Shown here: piece by piece, positions 52,391 to 59,801 of the stretch
Numbering within the stretch: position 1 is the first letter of the stretch
Layout: each line of letters opens with the position of its first letter
Source: Escherichia coli
GTDB lineage: Bacteria > Pseudomonadota > Gammaproteobacteria > Enterobacterales > Enterobacteriaceae
DNA: 64,000 nt
Assembly: GCF_013122565.1 (NCBI RefSeq)
Contig: NZ_CP053258.1
Direction: 5' to 3' (one strand)
Notes under the pieces: generated by a model
Databases searched by the model: none
Told to the model about the DNA's origin: nothing
Seen by the model: the letters and a program-made list of their open reading frames with translations, nothing else
Made by a program: the position numbers and the translations under genes

Positions 52391-52412
52391 AAGGCGGCAT
52401 TGCTGCCGCCTT
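52391..52412 (-). terminator. Rho-independent terminator after mukB
   Basis: Stem AAGGCGGCA / TGCCGCCTT immediately 3' of the mukB stop, with T-rich tail on the minus strand. Confidence 0.7.
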
Positions 52413-52416
52413 AATT

Positions 52417-55400
52417 TTAACTCGCCTGAGAAGGCGCTTCGTCACTTCCTGGAAGCGTTTCAGGGAGTTGCGGCGCAAATCCTCGCAGGCCGACGACATG
52501 AACGTGTTCGGTATTCTGGAAGACTTTACGTACCAGTTTATAGGTGGTGCCTTTTTCCGGACTGATATTTTCCGGCGCTGCGATGATGAGCTGCATTTGC
52601 AAACGTTCACACAATTCAAACAGCGTGGCGATAGAACGAGCATCCAGTCGCGCTGCTTCATCGAGGAACAGCAGGCGGCAAGGAGAGATATCTTTACCGC
52701 GCAGACGGCGAGATTCATCTTCCCAGCTTTGTACCACCATCACCAGAATCGACATACCGGTACCAATCGCCTCACCGGTCGACAATGCACCAGACTCTGC
52801 GCGCAACCAGCCATCGGAACCACGGTTAACCTCAACTTCCATTTCCAGATAGTTGCGGTAATCCAGCAGTTCTTCGCCAATGGTCTGCGGCGTGCGCTGC
52901 CCCATATCAATCTGCGGATTAAGACGCTGATACAATTTCGCCAGCGCTTCCGAGAAGGTCAGACGGTTGCTGTTAAACAGATCCTGATGCTGCTCGTGCT
53001 GTTCAGAGAGCACATCCAGCAGCATGGCGTGCGTTTCACGCACGTTCACGTTCAGGCGGACGCTGTTCACCTGACCGAACGATACGTTCTGCAAGCCCTG
53101 GTTGAGCATACGGATACGGTTCTGTTCGCGCTGAATAGTTTTGCGGATGATGTTCGCCACACTGCGGGAACTGATTGCCAGTTTCTGTTCACGGGAGGTT
53201 AACTCTTCGGTCAGACGGCTAAGTTCGATCTCCATCTGCTCGATAGCTTCCACTGGATCATCGGTACGAATAATATCCTGACGAATACGTTCACGCAGAT
53301 GCTGATAAACCGCCACGAAGAACTGGATTTTGCGCTCAGGTCGTTTCGGATCTTCCGACATACGCAGCACATCGCGCAGATGTTCGTTATCCGCCACCGC
53401 CAGACGCAGCGCACCCAACGCCTTATCCGACATGGAGCGCAAATCATCAGCGGAGAGATAAGCCAGCTCACGACGGTGTAAGCGGCGCTCAACGCCGTTA
53501 TCTTTCACCATGCGCATCACCGCACACCAGCCCGCTTTGGCGGTCACTACCTGCTCGCGCATCTCAAAGTAATCCCGCTCCAGCTTGCGCAGTTTGCGGG
53601 TCAGGTTGTCCATCTCCGCTTCGCAGAAGGTAAGCGCTTTTTCCAGTTGATTGCGGCGTGAACGGTTATTGCTCAGTTGCGCATGCAGCTCGTCACGGCG
53701 AATACGCGCCCGCTCTTCTGCCCCGCTATCAGCACGCACGCCGATATCCTGCAATTCACGTTGCAGATCGTTGAGTAGCTCTTTTTTGGTGTCGTAAGAA
53801 CTTTTCAGCGAAGCCAGCACCTGGTTGTACTGACTCAACTGCGCTGCGTGACCGCGCAACGCTTCGCGAGCGCGGGTACGCTCCGCTTCCGCCTGTTCCA
53901 GACGTTCACGCAGTTTTTCGTTGAGATCGCTGTTACCGCTAAGCATTTCTGCCGAGTCAGAGTAGCTAAAGTGCGCACGACGCTGCACCACTTCCGTCAG
54001 GGCAAACGCCTGCTGACGGGCATCACGCTGCATCTGCTGAGAGTACGCGTAATCTTCTTTTAACTGTTCGAACTGTTCCGGGTCGCTCTGCAACACTGAA
54101 ACAATCGGTTCCAGTTTCGCCAGTTGATTGCCAAACTGCTGAACAAAACGCGCGGCTTCCTGGGCTTCATCCAGACGTTCGCGGATTTCATCGACGCGAT
54201 CCGCCAGGCTGTCATCAGCCAACAGGTTGAGACGCGGCAGAATGCGGTTCAGCGCCGTAACGCCCTCTTTCGCCTGCTCAAATTGAATACGCTGCTGCTG
54301 GTTATCATTTTCATGATTACTCAGCGCCCGCTCCAGTTCGACGCGACGGCTGTTCAGTTGACGGATTTCTGCTTCCGGGTCAGACTCAAACGCCACCGCC
54401 AGATGACTGCCGATAAAGCGGCTGAACGCCTGATGCAGACGCTGGGTTTTCTGTACATCAAAGGAGAGCGTGGCGAAGCGTTCGGAAAGCACTTCACGCT
54501 CGGCATGGAGGCTTTCAATACGGCTTTCACGCGCAGCACGACCAAACAGCGGCACTTCCGGGAAACGTGAATAACGCCACTGACGATCGGCGATTTTCAC
54601 CACTACCGCTTTTTCCAGCTCATCAACGCTGAACACGCTGTCATCGAATGACTGCGGATCCCCTTCGATCAAATAGAGATCTTCCGGGCAATCGGTCAAG
54701 CCTTCCAGGTGTTCGGTTACCTGTGACAGATCTGGCACCACGATGGCGTGGCGTGACGGGCCATACAATGCCGAGAAGTACGGCGCATCTTCCAGGCTAA
54801 CGTCGTCATAAATTTCTGACAGCAGCACACCACCAAAACGCTCCGCCAGCGCGTTCAGACGCTGATCTTCCGAGCCGCCAGGCTGGCTTAAACGTTCGAT
54901 CTCTTCATCGACAGCGTTTTTGCGCGCGCCCACTTCATCGCGTTCAACAATCGCCTCTCGCTCACGCTCCAGCAACTGTTGCAGATATTCGGTAACGTCC
55001 TGGCTGGAGGTGAACTCTTCGCCGCACTGTTCGCTCAACTGGTTGAGACTGTTTTGCGCTGCCAGCCAAACCGGCGCACGCTGCATCAAACTCTGAATGC
55101 GAGACTGCAGCTGTTCCTGCTCCTGGCGCAGTGCCATACGCTCTTCGCGGGCGTTAGACACGCTATCGGAAAGAGAGGCAATACGCGCTTCCAGCTCCTG
55201 ATGCAGGGCTTCCAGTTCGTCGATATCAAAATTCTTGCCCTGACGTTTGCAGAAATCTGCCAGCAGGCGTTCGGCTTCTTGCTGCTCGCGCAGACGCTGT
55301 TCCAGTTCGCTTAAGCGCATCCGCAACGGCTGAACCTGCTCTGCCAGGTGACGCTGATCGACCCCTTCGCGCAATAGTTCGCGAGCGACATCCCACGCCT

Positions 55401-56877
55401 CGTTACGCGCCAGCGGGCCGTTGATTGCCACCACCAGCTGATAAGCCTGCTCAAACTGGCTGTGCGCGGTTTGCGCCATGCTCATTTTCTGCTCAAGAGA
55501 GAGCATTTTTTCAGTCGCTTCCAGCTCTTTCGCCTGGAAGGTTTCCAGCCATTCGGCGGCGCTGTCGGCGGTTAAGTCCGGCAGATGGCACAGTTCTTTG
55601 GCACGATTAAGCGCAGCAATCGCCTGGTTATACTGGATCGCGCGCGTTTGCTGGACGTCCAGCGCCTGCTGATAGTCAGCAAGCTGGCTTTTCAGCTCGT
55701 CCACTTCCAGTTCGGCAGCTTCCGCACGAGCCTCGTTCTCTTCCTGGCGTTCGATGGCTTCTGCCACCACTTCGTTTTGCTCTTCCAGACGGATCTGCAG
55801 CTCATCAAGATCCGCTTCGTAACGTTCGATCTTCTCCTGCTGACGTAGTGCGGTTTGCACCAGGTTCAGGTGATCGCTGGCCGCCTGATAATCTGCTTCC
55901 AGATCGCCTTCGGCACCGTTGTGCTCTGCCAGCTCACGCGCCATATCGACGTGTTTGTACTGCTCAGCCGCCAGTTGCTGACGCGAAGTATGTAGCTCGC
56001 GACGAAACTCCAGGGCTTTGTCGAGATGGACACGGCGCTCGTTGGCGTGACGCATGTAGTCCGCCGCCACGTAGTTGGTGGCTTCGCTGATCAGATGCTT
56101 AAACAGGTCACGGTCCGACTGGGTGACACGAATCGCTTCCAGCGTCATGCGATTTTCACGCAGTGCCGCTTCCATGTCCTGGAACGCTTTACGCACCCCG
56201 CTGTTTTCCGGCAACAGGTAGTCGCGCAGAGAACGGGTAATGGCACTGGAGATCCCGCCATACAGCGAAGCTTCGATCAGACGATAGAATTTGCTACGGT
56301 CAGATGCGGAGCGCAGACGACGCGCGATGATGCCCAGATCGAACATCAGCGAGTGGTAATCGGTAATGGAGTTGAACTGTTTAAACTGCACGCCTTCCAT
56401 CGCCTCGAGCTTGTCTTTCAGCTCGTTAAGCGGCAGCACGCGCGCCTGGCGTTCGTTCAGGGTTTCGGTCACCAACTGCGTCGGCTGCACCGACATCGGT
56501 AAACCCTGAATGGCAAACGGTTTGATATCGACTTTACGATCGCGTCCGGCAACCTGTTGCAGACGCACACCGACCACCACGCGCTGGTGGCGCGAGTTAA
56601 TGGTGTCGAGCATCGAATAACAGACACCCGCTTTCAGCTTACCGTGCAGACCTTTATCGCGCGAACCGCTGGTGGCCCCGGCTTCCGTAGTGTTACGGAA
56701 ATGCAGCAGGGTCAGGTCGGGGATCAGCGCCGTAACGAACGCCGCCATGGTGGTGGATTTACCCGCCCCGTTACCGCCAGAAAGCGTCGTGACCAGCTCG
56801 TCAAGGTCAAAAGTTCGGGCAAAAAAGCCGTTCCAGTTAATCAGCGTCAGTGAGCGAAATTTACCGCGTTCAATCAT
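52417..56877 (-). CDS. mukB: Chromosome partition protein MukB (SMC-like condensin), 1486 aa
   Basis: ORF 52417..56877; Walker [10 protein letters not shown] at the N-terminus; long coiled coils. Confidence 0.96.
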
Positions 56878-57581
56878 TATTCTTCCTCTCCGCTATCTGG
56901 CTGATTCTCTTCGGTTTCATCGTTGAGTTGCAGATGATTTTCAATCGGCATTGCTTCGCCATCACGAATCAGGCGACGCTGTGCTTCACGGGGATCGTCG
57001 CCAGCACGCACATCGGCTCCGAAGCGGAACACCGATTCGGTAATGCGGAACTTGCTGCTGTCGTGGCCCATAAACCACACCATGCCTAAACGACGCAGAC
57101 GGTTGAGCGAAGAACGTACTTTTTCCTGCAACTTCTGACGGTCAACGTCTGAACCGGTTGAACGGTTGTTCACCAGTTTCAGCAGTTTCGCTTCATCGGC
57201 CAGGGTGAGCAGTTCGTCGTACAGTTCCTGTTGAGTAAAAATCCCCTCATTCGCCAGCCGTTCCGGGCTGAGATAGAGATAACAGAGGATTTTCCCGACC
57301 ATCATATCCAGTTCCGACAAGACGGAACGAGGGATCAGCGTGGTGGAACGTGGACGTAAATAGAAGAACCCTTCCGGTGCACGAATAAGCTCAACGTTAT
57401 AACGCGCGTAAAACTCTTCCAGATATTCCTGAAAATCCATCAGGAATGCATGATTATCCAGTTCGTCGAGGCCAATATGGCGGCCTGAACGTAAGGCGCT
57501 GTCCAGCGCCGGAAATAACGGATTCGCCAGCGCCTGCGCCAGCTTAACCGGCATCACTTGTTCAATATTTGTCGATGACAT
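56877..57581 (-). CDS. mukE: Chromosome partition protein MukE, 234 aa
   Basis: ORF 56877..57608 trimmed to [16 protein letters not shown] (ATG 57579-57581); stop shares one nt with the mukB ATG. Confidence 0.88.
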
Positions 57582-58884
57582 GCGCCTGTACCTTGGCTCC
57601 GTAATCATTAATCGGCTGCCATTTCGCTGGCAGTCCGGTGAAATCTGCTTGCGCTACGCCAAGACGTACCGCCTGATCAATAACAATGCGCGCAACGTCA
57701 AAGTGACGTGCACGCGGATACTGTGACAGATATTCGCGTACCACCAGACCAAGATCCAGCGGCACTTGTCTGGTTTTGTACACAGCAAGTTGTTCTTCGA
57801 TGATCGCCGCCAGCTGTTCGCGGATCTCGTTAAATTCTTCGTATTCCAAATCTGGCGGAAGTTCCCCAGTCACTTCTTCATCGCGCAGTGCCATCTCTTC
57901 GTCACGCATATCCAGCAGACGATCGGCATTGGCATAAGTTAGCGCCCACGGCTCATCAAAATAGGTTTGTACCGACTGACGTAACCGCTGAGCAAAGACG
58001 CGGTTTTTATCCATATCGATCGCGGTACGAATAAATTTATGTACGTGGCGGTCGTAGCCAATCCACAAATCGATGGATTGCTGGCCCCAACTGATAATAC
58101 GGTCGAGTTTGCTCTGCAGATCGAACACCAGACGATCGACAAAATGCAGATCGTCATGAGTCATCGTCGCATCCTGAATGCGCAACAGATTAGCCTGCAA
58201 TTTGTCGCCTGCCGCTTCCAGCGTATCCTGCAATTCACGCAGCGTTCCGGAAGTTTCCGAAAGCAACAATTCACAGCTGGAAATCGCCGCCCGCCAGTCT
58301 TTGTTCAGCAACTGGGCAATATCGTCCTTCACCTGCTGCTGCTGTTCGTCCATCAGACGTTGCGTCAGGTCGATACTGTCGAAAATTTCTGCTACCGAAT
58401 ATTTCAGTGGCGCATAGACATTACGGTGCCAGTGAAATTCATCACCGCCCTCTTCGGCGGCATCTGCTGCGCGTTTTAGCTCACCCGCCACAATCGACAA
58501 CTGCATAGAAAGACGCAGCGTAGAAAACTCGCGCTGACGGATGTAATAGTCAGTAATGCCGATGCCGAGCGGCGTCAGACGGTAAATTGCGTTCCCTTCC
58601 GCCTGCTCGCTGGTAAAGCGGTTCAGCAGACGTTGACGCACCATGTCGTTGATCGCGTTGTTGGCGCGCACGCCGATGGTTTCGCTGGTTTGCTCAAACG
58701 CATCACTCACATGGCGGAATGCATCCACCAGCTCGCCTTCACTCATCTCACCATCCAGACGCTCGCTGTTCAGCGTGGCAACCGCCAGCAGAAAAGAGAG
58801 TCGGTCTACCGGCAGCGAGATGGAGAAGTCATTTTTTCTGGCCCAGGCAACCAGTTCGGGGACTGTCTGGGAAAATTCACTCAT
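57562..58884 (-). CDS. mukF: Chromosome partition kleisin MukF, 440 aa
   Basis: ORF 57562..58884; [25 protein letters not shown]. Confidence 0.94.
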
Positions 58885-59666
58885 ACTTTATCCTTGCTCT
58901 GCGGTTTGCGCGCGGTGACATGAATATAACGCCCCAGGGTAATATACGGTTCCTGACGGCAATAACGCGTTTCTAATTCAAGTAATGCTTCATAGCAGTC
59001 GCGCTGCTGGTGCTTCTCGCGCAGATAATCATGAAACACACGAACGCCTGTCTTACCCATAATTTGCCAACCAGCTTCTTCCAGCCACAGATAAACCTGC
59101 GCAGGGTCGCGTGGATAATCTGGCGAAAGCGTCCGTTTTTTCTTTTTCGGCATTCCCGCCTGCACGTAATCAAAATTCCCGGCGACCATGTTATGCATCA
59201 ACAAACCATGCGCATTGTAGAACATTAACGACAACACGCCGCCTGGACGCAACACTGACCACAGGGTCTGCAATACGCTGCGGGGATCAGCCACCCACTC
59301 GAGCACCGCATGGAACAATATCAGATCAACGGGCGTTTCCAAATGCGAAGCAACATCCTGAGCGGCGCAATGTATAAATTGCATGTTGTCGCTCACACCT
59401 TTTGCTTCTGCCGCCTGTTTTGCGCGGACGATCATCTGCGCAGAAAGATCGCATAAAATAACCTGATGCCCACGCTCGGCCATTTTGATTGCAGTCTGCC
59501 CTTCTCCACCGCCCGCATCCAGCACACGCAGTTTTTGCGGGCCCATTTCCGCCAGCACGCGATCGAGATCCTGCCACAGAATAGCCTGTCGAAGCTGTCC
59601 TTTGGTGGTGCCGTAAATGTTACGGGAAAACTTTTCCGCAATATCATCAAAATTGCGATCCTGCAT
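58881..59666 (-). CDS. cmoM: tRNA mcmo5U methyltransferase CmoM (SmtA), 261 aa
   Basis: ORF 58881..59678 trimmed to [19 protein letters not shown]; SAM motif VLDAGGGEG; stop overlaps the mukF ATG. Confidence 0.9.
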
Positions 59667-59801
59667 TGCTTTCTCCACCGGTTGGCTAAGACGTTTTCTG
59701 ATAAAGACGCTATTTTGTCACAGCCACGGCGAGAATGAACCCGTCTGGTGTAATATCGCTGGCGATCCCTTGCTATATGGTCAAAAAAGGAACCAGAAAG
59801 G

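Follow-up and report, generated by a model that had tools for sequence, protein, structure and literature searches.

Conserved start regions and overlapping genes in the known cmoM-mukFEB operon of Escherichia coli: coupling is allowed but not proved

Results

Gene content and operon status

We analysed a 64,000-nt stretch of E. coli DNA (contig NZ_CP053258.1 of assembly GCF_013122565.1), referred to here as the window. Based on the ORF map and the sequence, its minus strand carries cmoM, mukF, mukE and mukB in that order, with elyC on the upstream side and ldtD on the downstream side; order and strand match those of K-12 and of a PGAP-annotated genome. All four products scored far over the cut-offs of their NCBIfam equivalog models (CmoM, NF008264, 502 bits; MukF, NF003615, 844 bits; MukE, NF003602, 412 bits; MukB, NF003422, 2647 bits). 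We delineated the following features:

58881-59666, minus strand: cmoM (formerly smtA), first in the operon, encoding a 261-aa tRNA cmo5U34 methyltransferase (ORF, NF008264, RefSeq)
57562-58884, minus strand: mukF, kleisin subunit, 440 aa (ORF, full-length match to NF003615, RefSeq, initiation peak)
56877-57581, minus strand: mukE, KITE subunit, 234 aa (initiation peak, conservation, RefSeq NP_415443.2)
52417-56877, minus strand: mukB, SMC subunit, 1486 aa (ORF, NF003422, RefSeq, initiation peak)
52391-52412, minus strand: terminator-like hairpin, putative end of the operon transcript (pattern match from a consensus scan)
58877-58895, minus strand: cmoM/mukF junction, with the mukF SD sequence AAGGA at 58895-58891 inside cmoM
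57552-57611, minus strand: mukF/mukE junction, a near-invariant 60-nt block with the mukE start at its centre (65 distinct sequences)
56875-56891, minus strand: mukE/mukB junction, with the mukB SD sequence GGAGAGGAAG at 56891-56882 inside mukE

The operon and its exact overlaps are already known and present in every E. coli annotation, and finding them here is ordinary. An smtA-mukFEB operon has been on record since 1996 (Yamanaka et al. 1996, cited in PMC4255302), and swapping the promoter upstream of smtA for Para is a published route to higher MukBEF occupancy (PMC7163298). RefSeq places cmoM at 973537-974322, mukF at 974319-975641, mukE at 975622-976326 and mukB at 976326-980786 in K-12 MG1655, and the identical three overlaps (974319-974322, 975622-975641 and 976326) appear both there and in the annotation of one PGAP genome. 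All but one of the 5426 complete E. coli genomes (5425) contained the region at an identity of at least 95%, with a best match of 99.4%.

The four genes would be co-transcribed from a promoter upstream of cmoM, with the transcript probably ending at the hairpin behind mukB. This hairpin, located by a consensus scan 5 nt past the mukB stop, has a 9-bp stem with 6 GC pairs and is followed by a T-rich run. Scanning the minus strand for consensus patterns gave no sigma-70-type promoter over threshold upstream of cmoM and no internal promoter in the operon; the latter result is neither support for nor evidence against a separate mukFEB transcript.

For cmoM, the mechanical ORF starts at GTG 59678, a candidate that we rejected for ATG 59666 based on the family model (NF008264 positions 1-261 align to residues 5-265 of the GTG-started ORF), RefSeq and the SD sequence (GGAG at 59676-59673, duplex energy -6.4 kcal/mol). 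As a side observation, INRI-seq gives, in vitro only, a possible GTG start in frame and 12 nt ahead of the cmoM start.

Three junctions, each with its own start signals

The sequence-only reading had described the four genes as chained by overlapping stop and start codons, and the letters bear this out at every junction. cmoM and mukF share an ATGA (cmoM TGA 58883-58881, mukF ATG 58884-58882; 4-nt overlap), the 20-nt overlap of mukF with mukE (57581-57562) runs from the in-frame mukE ATG 57581-57579 to the mukF TGA 57564-57562, and mukE and mukB share a TAATG at 56879-56875 (mukE TAA 56879-56877, mukB ATG 56877-56875; 1-nt overlap).

Each downstream gene also has an SD sequence of its own inside the upstream gene, namely AAGGA for mukF, GGAG/AAGG for mukE and GGAGAGGAAG for mukB, with energies of -5.2, -5.8 and -6.6 kcal/mol, the last in the top 2% of operon-strand NTG sites. 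Each downstream start region is packed inside the 3' end of the preceding gene. At the mukE start, the 60-nt block holds GGAG (57600-57597), AAGG (57594-57591), the mukE ATG, the mukF TGA and an internal ATG at 57554-57552 (Met10), and the mukF ATG lies among stops that close every frame: TAA 58890-58888, the cmoM stop at 58883-58881 and TGA 58879-58877.

Conservation of the junctions

We compared 82 loci, 80 of them from species-representative genomes (nearly all Enterobacteriaceae) and two from E. coli reference records. This genome scan gave close relatives only; distant lineages were reached through cluster representatives, many of which are metagenome contigs. In Rahnella and Erwinia the gene order matches the window's elyC/cmoM-mukFEB/ldtD order. 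Vibrio enters the comparison solely through V. fischeri, for which PMC3948606 cites an operon predicted in DOOR.

The mukF/mukE overlap was -20 in 82 of 82 loci and again in Rahnella, Erwinia and Ca. Symbiodolus, and so fixed in all Enterobacterales loci examined. Outside this order the spacing was +34, +52, +85, -8 or -32, with one 3.4-kb insertion. The mukE/mukB distance was -1 in 80 of 82 loci and -4 in the other two, and it fell within -17 to +5 in every distant lineage seen. Among the 79 loci having a cmoM/mukF junction, the cmoM stop lay at -8 from the mukF ATG in 34, at +3 in 33 and at -4 in 12, and the cmoM C-terminal tail ran in three different reading frames among genera. The AAGGA core was present in 74 of these 79 loci, and in 68 of the 79 all three frames were closed within -9 to +8 of the mukF ATG, compared with 1 of 123 operon-strand ATG triplets. 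Stops clustered in all frames at the mukF ATG, and the mukE/mukB range of -17 to +5, would also fit selection for coupling.

Synonymous diversity singled out the start regions. The block at 57552-57611 was near-invariant over 65 distinct sequences, mukF synonymous sites included, and mukE codons 1-10 (0.000) and mukF codons 427-436 (0.007) gave the two lowest scores of 2234 ten-codon windows in the operon, with diversity back to normal from mukE codon 11. At the mukF start, codons 1-10 scored 0.03 against an operon mean of ~0.39. These values show that nucleotide constraint in the operon is strongest at the starts of mukF and mukE. Together with the conserved spacings, they mark the arrangement as more than chance in evolutionary terms. 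We also observed that the first 15 mukF codons are as invariant as the mukF/mukE block.

Initiation at the individual start sites

Published INRI-seq data (PMC9825163) bear directly on whether each start can act alone. In these experiments, fragments with 30 nt of upstream sequence and 153 nt of ORF were translated in PURExpress with retapamulin, and the accompanying Table S2 includes a Ribo-RET re-analysis. The isolated mukF, mukE and mukB start fragments recruit initiating ribosomes without translation of an upstream ORF, and peaks at all four K-12 starts (973537, 974319, 975622 and 976326) are listed both in vitro and in vivo (PMC9825163). Peak heights in INRI-seq, at 5-11 CPM and 0 for one of the mukE replicates, are low, and starts that work in vitro could still be strongly coupled in vivo.

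Folding the three junctions (111-121 nt) gave local RNA structures no stabler than those of shuffled sequences (z = -0.73, +0.92 and -0.34). Because the junction sequence is invariant, it offers no covariation for structure analysis; initiation on isolated fragments in vitro, for its part, indicates that no local masking affects the start regions.

The MukE start

The 20-nt overlap depends on where MukE begins, and the sequence-only reading had named the downstream methionine of MPVKLAQ as the start that would remove it. With that start, at ATG 57554, MukE would be 225 aa long, a 7-nt gap would separate its gene from mukF, and its translation would come from ribosomes that reinitiate beyond the mukF stop. 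Several facts speak for this: all 82 loci have this ATG without exception, 7 nt beyond the mukF stop, the 225-aa form was used in several solved structures (3RPU, 7V8P), and NP_415443.2 is the second version of its record, which suggests an earlier, different MukE start. The synthetic genome Syn61 retains forbidden codons in mukE owing to changed gene coordinates (PMC13287592). These are probably codons 2-3 (TCA TCG) of the 234-aa form, and Syn61Δ3 lacks the tRNAs that read them. Syn61Δ3 is presumably viable all the same.

We nevertheless consider this start extremely improbable. ATG 57554 has no SD sequence (+0.4 kcal/mol, compared with -5.8 kcal/mol for ATG 57581), and neither INRI-seq nor Ribo-RET lists an initiation site at its position, +27, whereas the annotated ATG (K-12 975622) has a peak in both. 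The conserved block spans -30 to +29 around ATG 57581 and is not centred on 57554. In eight species of Pasteurellaceae and in H. ducreyi, the Met10 position is Ile and the N-terminal extension is kept as 9-10 homologous residues, N-[IL]-[EQ]-x-[VL]-[MI]; the extension is conserved as protein in Pasteurellaceae, in which mukF and mukE do not overlap. Ca. Symbiodolus keeps ATG TCA TCG and the 20-nt overlap without a Met at the aligned position, and the NCBIfam MukE model starts within the extension. Taken together, SD strength, conservation and initiation peaks favour ATG 57581 and a 234-aa MukE, with the 225-aa form not the main start. A longer, 243-aa ORF from ATG 57608, the first ATG after the upstream stop, was rejected as well, being ACG in 16 of 82 loci, without an SD sequence and outside the family model. 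mukE is absent from the TRAINSPOTTER N-terminomics supplements.

Discussion

Overlap geometry and translational coupling

From the overlaps, the sequence-only reading had concluded that a tRNA-modification gene is translationally coupled to the condensin genes. The overlaps allow translational coupling, and to that extent the claim stands; they do not prove it, and the separate SD sequences, the initiation seen in vitro, the -20 overlap and the variable cmoM/mukF junction weigh against the conclusion as drawn. We found no nonsense-polarity or coupling experiment on cmoM-mukFEB in the literature searched, and searches on mukE coupling, on cmoM with mukF and on ribosome profiling of mukE/mukF returned nothing relevant.

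Termination-reinitiation has been predicted from intergenic distances of -8 to +10 (Huber et al., PMC10666635), a range that contains cmoM/mukF (-4) and mukE/mukB (-1) and leaves out mukF/mukE (-20). An SD sequence within the upstream gene is present at all three junctions. Because mukF/mukE lies outside the range, the chain as a whole does not belong to this class of gene pairs. Coupling at the -4 and -1 junctions is plausible on the geometry, and would be non-obligatory.

An obligatory chain from cmoM through mukF and mukE to mukB, in which each gene is translated by reinitiation and CmoM synthesis gates condensin synthesis, is a far stronger proposal. The geometry of -4, -20 and -1 invites it, as do the unvarying proximity of the cmoM stop to the mukF ATG (always -8 to +3, mostly with stops in three frames) and the tight mukE/mukB spacing in all lineages seen. 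Moreover, coupling was observed in four of five native E. coli pairs tested at -4, and an enrichment of short distances has been found for subunits of one complex (PMC6728339; PMC10666635). Each start, however, has its own SD sequence, and the isolated start regions initiate without upstream translation. The Ribo-RET peak of mukF (75) exceeds that of cmoM (20), which would be hard to achieve by reinitiation alone, although such retapamulin peak heights are semi-quantitative and not quantitative measures of expression. A distance of ~20 nt nearly abolished reinitiation in tests that used downstream gaps (PMC10666635), and MukBEF has a stoichiometry of B4:E4:F2 (PMC8602292), an E:F ratio of 2:1 that independent mukE initiation would fit and strict one-to-one coupling would not. 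Finally, mukF of the Actinobacillus locus lacks an upstream cmoM and lies 34 nt from mukE, and in Pasteurella canis hsdM and hsdS are inserted between mukF and mukE. We regard an obligatory chain as improbable. The opposite reading, that the overlaps are neutral by-products of stop and start drift in a compact genome with no role in expression, is somewhat less doubtful but still unlikely. It accommodates a cmoM tail that ends at -8, -4 or +3 in three frames among genera, the status of -4 and -1 overlaps as the default outcome in many genomes, and a mukF-mukE spacing that varies widely beyond Enterobacterales. Against it stand the fixation of -20 in the Enterobacterales examined, the -1 spacing in nearly all of the 82 loci, and start nucleotides in mukF and mukE more constrained than any others in the operon, synonymous sites too. 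This constraint implies selection on the start regions, even if that selection does not extend to the precise length of the overlap.

We conclude that the locus is very probably the known smtA(cmoM)-mukFEB operon with mainly independent initiation and possible, non-obligatory coupling. Translation of mukF, mukE and mukB would be set mainly by their own conserved start regions, with termination-reinitiation probably adding at cmoM-mukF and mukE-mukB, and contributing much less or nothing at the 20-nt mukF/mukE overlap. cmoM would then be tied to the condensin genes by co-transcription and possibly by coupling that is not obligatory, a link that appears, on gene order in distant lineages, to be lineage-specific and not general to MukBEF.

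More speculatively, and with little expectation that it is right, the 60-nt block could act as a dedicated element of translational control behind the 2:1 MukE:MukF ratio, with an SD-led start for a 234-aa MukE and a reinitiated start for a 225-aa MukE, giving two isoforms; the first 15 codons of mukF might be under the same kind of control, for example as a small RNA or protein binding site. If this were true, reinitiation at ATG 57554 would explain how Syn61Δ3 copes with TCA TCG, codons that it is unable to read, at positions 2-3 of MukE.

As a discovery, the arrangement carries little weight, given a known operon and short stop/start overlaps that are the commonest type of junction in E. 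coli. Its practical side lies in the start sites. Both the 234-aa and the 225-aa MukE appear in published structures, and the present evidence supports the 234-aa start; in a synthetic genome, some codons escaped recoding owing to an outdated MukE start. Refactoring or recoding of this essential condensin operon should heed the unusually strong nucleotide constraint at the mukF and mukE starts.

Comparison with known systems

The closest counterpart is smtA(cmoM)-mukF-mukE-mukB of E. coli K-12 (b0921-b0924), in which the genes, their order and all three overlaps equal those of the window. The mukF/mukE boundary sequence is identical; the window represents a slightly different E. coli lineage, and otherwise nothing substantial differs.

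Pasteurellaceae loci (Actinobacillus porcinus-type, L083 and L084; Pasteurella canis, L093) share the order mukF, mukE, mukB with the window, and mukE and mukB remain close together, at -1 with TAATG in Actinobacillus and at +5 in P. canis. Unlike in the window, mukF of the Actinobacillus locus has no cmoM upstream and is separated from mukE by 34 nt, while the genes between mukF and mukE in P. canis encode a type I restriction-modification system (hsdM and hsdS).

[quoted passage not shown] The geometry itself is unremarkable: no intergenic distances are commoner in E. coli than -4 and -1, and the range from -8 to +6 takes in 707 of 2987 same-strand pairs (PMC10666635). The 1-nt mukE/mukB overlap belongs to the second commonest type, and two of the three muk pairs encode subunits of one complex. 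The locus departs from the coupled pairs of Huber et al. 2019 in the 20-nt length of the mukF/mukE overlap and in that cmoM and mukF are not known complex partners. Structure-mediated coupling, as in trpBA, atpHA and rplJL (PMC6728339), likewise places the downstream start inside the upstream coding sequence, as here, but the muk junctions differ from these systems in having no significant local structure and in initiating as isolated fragments in vitro.

Operon layout and junctions

According to the account in PMC4255302, the description of the smtA-mukF-mukE-mukB operon, in which smtA is the present cmoM, dates from Yamanaka et al. 1996. The published approach raises MukBEF levels by swapping in an arabinose promoter upstream of smtA (PMC7163298). 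All four products (CmoM, MukF, MukE and MukB) scored well over the cut-offs of their NCBIfam equivalog models, and the operon region was present at at least 95% identity in 5425 of 5426 complete E. coli genomes. The junction coordinates proposed in the sequence-only reading proved right in all details when read on the minus strand, and identical overlaps are found in the RefSeq annotation of K-12 MG1655 and in one PGAP-annotated strain. The cmoM-mukFEB overlaps are already known, annotated features.

Junctions of the operon.
58883-58881 (-), cmoM TGA, and 58884-58882 (-), mukF ATG: common ATGA
57564-57562 (-), mukF TGA, and 57581-57579 (-), in-frame mukE ATG: 20-nt overlap
56879-56877 (-), mukE TAA, and 56877-56875 (-), mukB ATG: common TAATG

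Downstream, a terminator-like hairpin lies 3' of mukB (52412-52391); it has a terminator-like score on both strands and could also end transcription arriving from the opposite direction. At the other end of the operon, INRI-seq reports an alternative cmoM start, an in-frame GTG 12 nt upstream of the annotated ATG (window 59667-59678, minus strand). This site, detected in vitro but not in vivo, matches the GTG at 59678 with which the mechanical ORF begins.

Choice of the MukE start

The choice of MukE start is the sole weak point of the overlap observation. Three in-frame ATGs, at 57608, 57581 and 57554, give proteins of 243, 234 and 225 aa, the last beginning MPVKLAQ, and published structures differ in the form used, with 234 aa in 3EUH and 9GMB and 225 aa in 3RPU and 7V8P. 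The comparison drew on 80 loci from species-representative genomes, almost all of them Enterobacteriaceae, and two from E. coli reference records, 82 loci in total. The ATG at 57608 was rejected as the start because it is ACG in 16 of these loci; the other two are invariant in all 82.

Several lines of evidence point to 57581. This ATG has a Shine-Dalgarno (SD) sequence (GGAG plus AAGG, -5.8 kcal/mol), and none was found for 57554 (+0.4 kcal/mol). It sits in a near-invariant block that extends 30 nt to its 5' side and 29 nt to its 3' side, mukF synonymous sites included. Among 2234 ten-codon windows across the four genes (mean synonymous diversity ~0.39), the lowest values were those of mukE codons 1-10 (0.000) and mukF codons 427-436 (0.007), with diversity back to normal from mukE codon 11 onward. 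MukE from eight Pasteurellaceae species and from H. ducreyi (PDB 3EUK) has Ile in place of E. coli Met10, and its N-terminus still bears a homologous extension of the form M-x-x-N-[LI]-Q-[DE]-L-[IL]-x-x-K-L-A. Because mukE does not overlap mukF in either Pasteurellaceae locus read at the DNA level, conservation of the extension there is not due to the overlap. In Ca. Symbiodolus, the 20-nt overlap is retained together with ATG TCA TCG, but Met is missing from the aligned position downstream. Finally, INRI-seq Table S2 (PMC9825163) lists an initiating-ribosome peak at K-12 975622, equivalent to window 57581; it was called in vitro, and the retapamulin data from Meydan et al. show it in vivo as well. 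The INRI-seq table of alternative sites has no mukE entry at +27. Taken together, these results argue against a start at MPVKLAQ, which would have removed the overlap, and the 20-nt mukF/mukE overlap stands.

Forbidden codons are reported to remain in mukE of the recoded strain Syn61, owing to changed gene coordinates (PMC13287592, 2026). These are likely codons 2-3 of the 234-aa form, TCA TCG (window 57575-57580, minus strand). This pair of serine codons is the one eliminated in the recoding of Syn61. Syn61Δ3, which is without tRNAs for them, is viable and slow-growing. Its viability would imply either that MukE is made from a downstream start or that Muk function is dispensable in this slow-growing strain. 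We consider a second, reinitiation-driven 225-aa isoform improbable; the INRI-seq alternative-site table contains no initiation peak for it.

Several cluster representatives of 382-574 aa (P0127, P0129, P0130, P0133 and P0136), far longer than MukE itself, also have an N-terminal MukE domain; they could be true fusions or artefacts of gene calling or assembly.

Conservation of the junctions

Stop-to-start distances in nt (negative, overlap; positive, gap).
mukF/mukE, 82-locus set: -20 in 82/82
mukF/mukE, other lineages: -20 in Rahnella, Erwinia and Ca. Symbiodolus; +34 in the Actinobacillus porcinus lineage
mukF/mukE, further distant lineages: +52, +85, -8, -32
mukF/mukE, Pasteurella canis: two type I restriction-modification genes (hsdM, hsdS) in between
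mukE/mukB, 82-locus set: -1 in 80/82, -4 in 2/82
mukE/mukB, other lineages: -17 to +5 throughout
cmoM/mukF, 82-locus set: -8 (34 loci), +3 (33), -4 (12)
cmoM/mukF, other lineages: -4 in Rahnella; -8 in Erwinia and Ca. Symbiodolus

The mukE/mukB junction is the best conserved juxtaposition of the three. The least fixed is cmoM/mukF, as the final CmoM codons are read in different frames across genera, and cmoM is absent upstream of mukF in the Actinobacillus locus. Despite these frame changes, the nucleotides at the boundary (GCAAGGATAA...ATGAGTGA) are largely conserved. Stops occur in all three frames inside 14 nt around the mukF ATG (window 58877-58890, minus strand, TAAAGTATGAGTGA), so that the cmoM stop adjoins this ATG in any frame. 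Equivalent closure was found in 68 of 79 loci and is rare elsewhere (1 of 123 ATG triplets on the operon strand). The mukB start has a similar ATGATTGA.

In Pasteurella canis (CP085873.1; locus L093, 1-4232), the genes splitting the condensin operon are hsdM-like (682 aa) and hsdS-like (383 aa), and mukE, preceded by an AAAGAGA motif of its own, starts 6 nt past the hsdS stop.

Other sites also showed reduced synonymous diversity. In mukF codons 1-16 (window 58837-58884, minus strand) it was 0.03 versus ~0.39, the first ~15 codons being near-invariant across the 79 loci with mukF, a constraint longer than is usual for start regions; the same holds for Erwinia and Rahnella. A second island (~0.07) covers cmoM codons 88-100 (window 59367-59405, minus strand), over AAAGGTGTGAGCGACAACATGCAATTTATACATTGC, and could reflect an internal signal (promoter or start) or codon-level constraint. 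A smaller dip (0.13) was seen at mukF codons 61-70 (window 58675-58704, minus strand).

Possible translational coupling

The sequence-only reading took the overlaps to mean that translation is coupled from cmoM through mukB. We found no polarity or coupling experiments on this operon in the searchable literature. Some coupling is favored by the distances of -4 and -1, by the clustered stops around the start of mukF and by the highly stable mukE/mukB junction. Against an obligatory link speaks the SD sequence that each downstream start has of its own. For each ORF, INRI-seq transcripts contain 153 nt of coding sequence preceded by just 30 nt, which leaves the upstream gene untranslated; initiation was nevertheless called at the starts of mukF, mukE and mukB (PMC9825163). 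The in vivo retapamulin peak is higher at mukF (75) than at cmoM (20), the complex requires two MukE per MukF, the 20-nt overlap falls beyond the -8 to +10 class, and local RNA folding gave no sign of a masking structure. Moreover, Pasteurellaceae manage with neither the cmoM link nor the mukF/mukE overlap.

The sequence-only interpretation is supported in part: the genes are compact and probably co-transcribed, and coupling in cmoM-mukFEB is possible but not obligatory. The start regions themselves would be the selected elements, with termination-reinitiation probably adding to initiation at both short junctions.

Such geometry is ordinary for E. coli. The two most frequent junctions between same-strand genes are the 4-nt and the 1-nt overlap, 707 of 2987 same-strand pairs lie at -8 to +6 nt, and subunits of one complex show a 4.5-fold enrichment of short intergenic distances (PMC10666635); four of five native pairs with a 4-nt overlap were coupled in experiment (PMC6728339).
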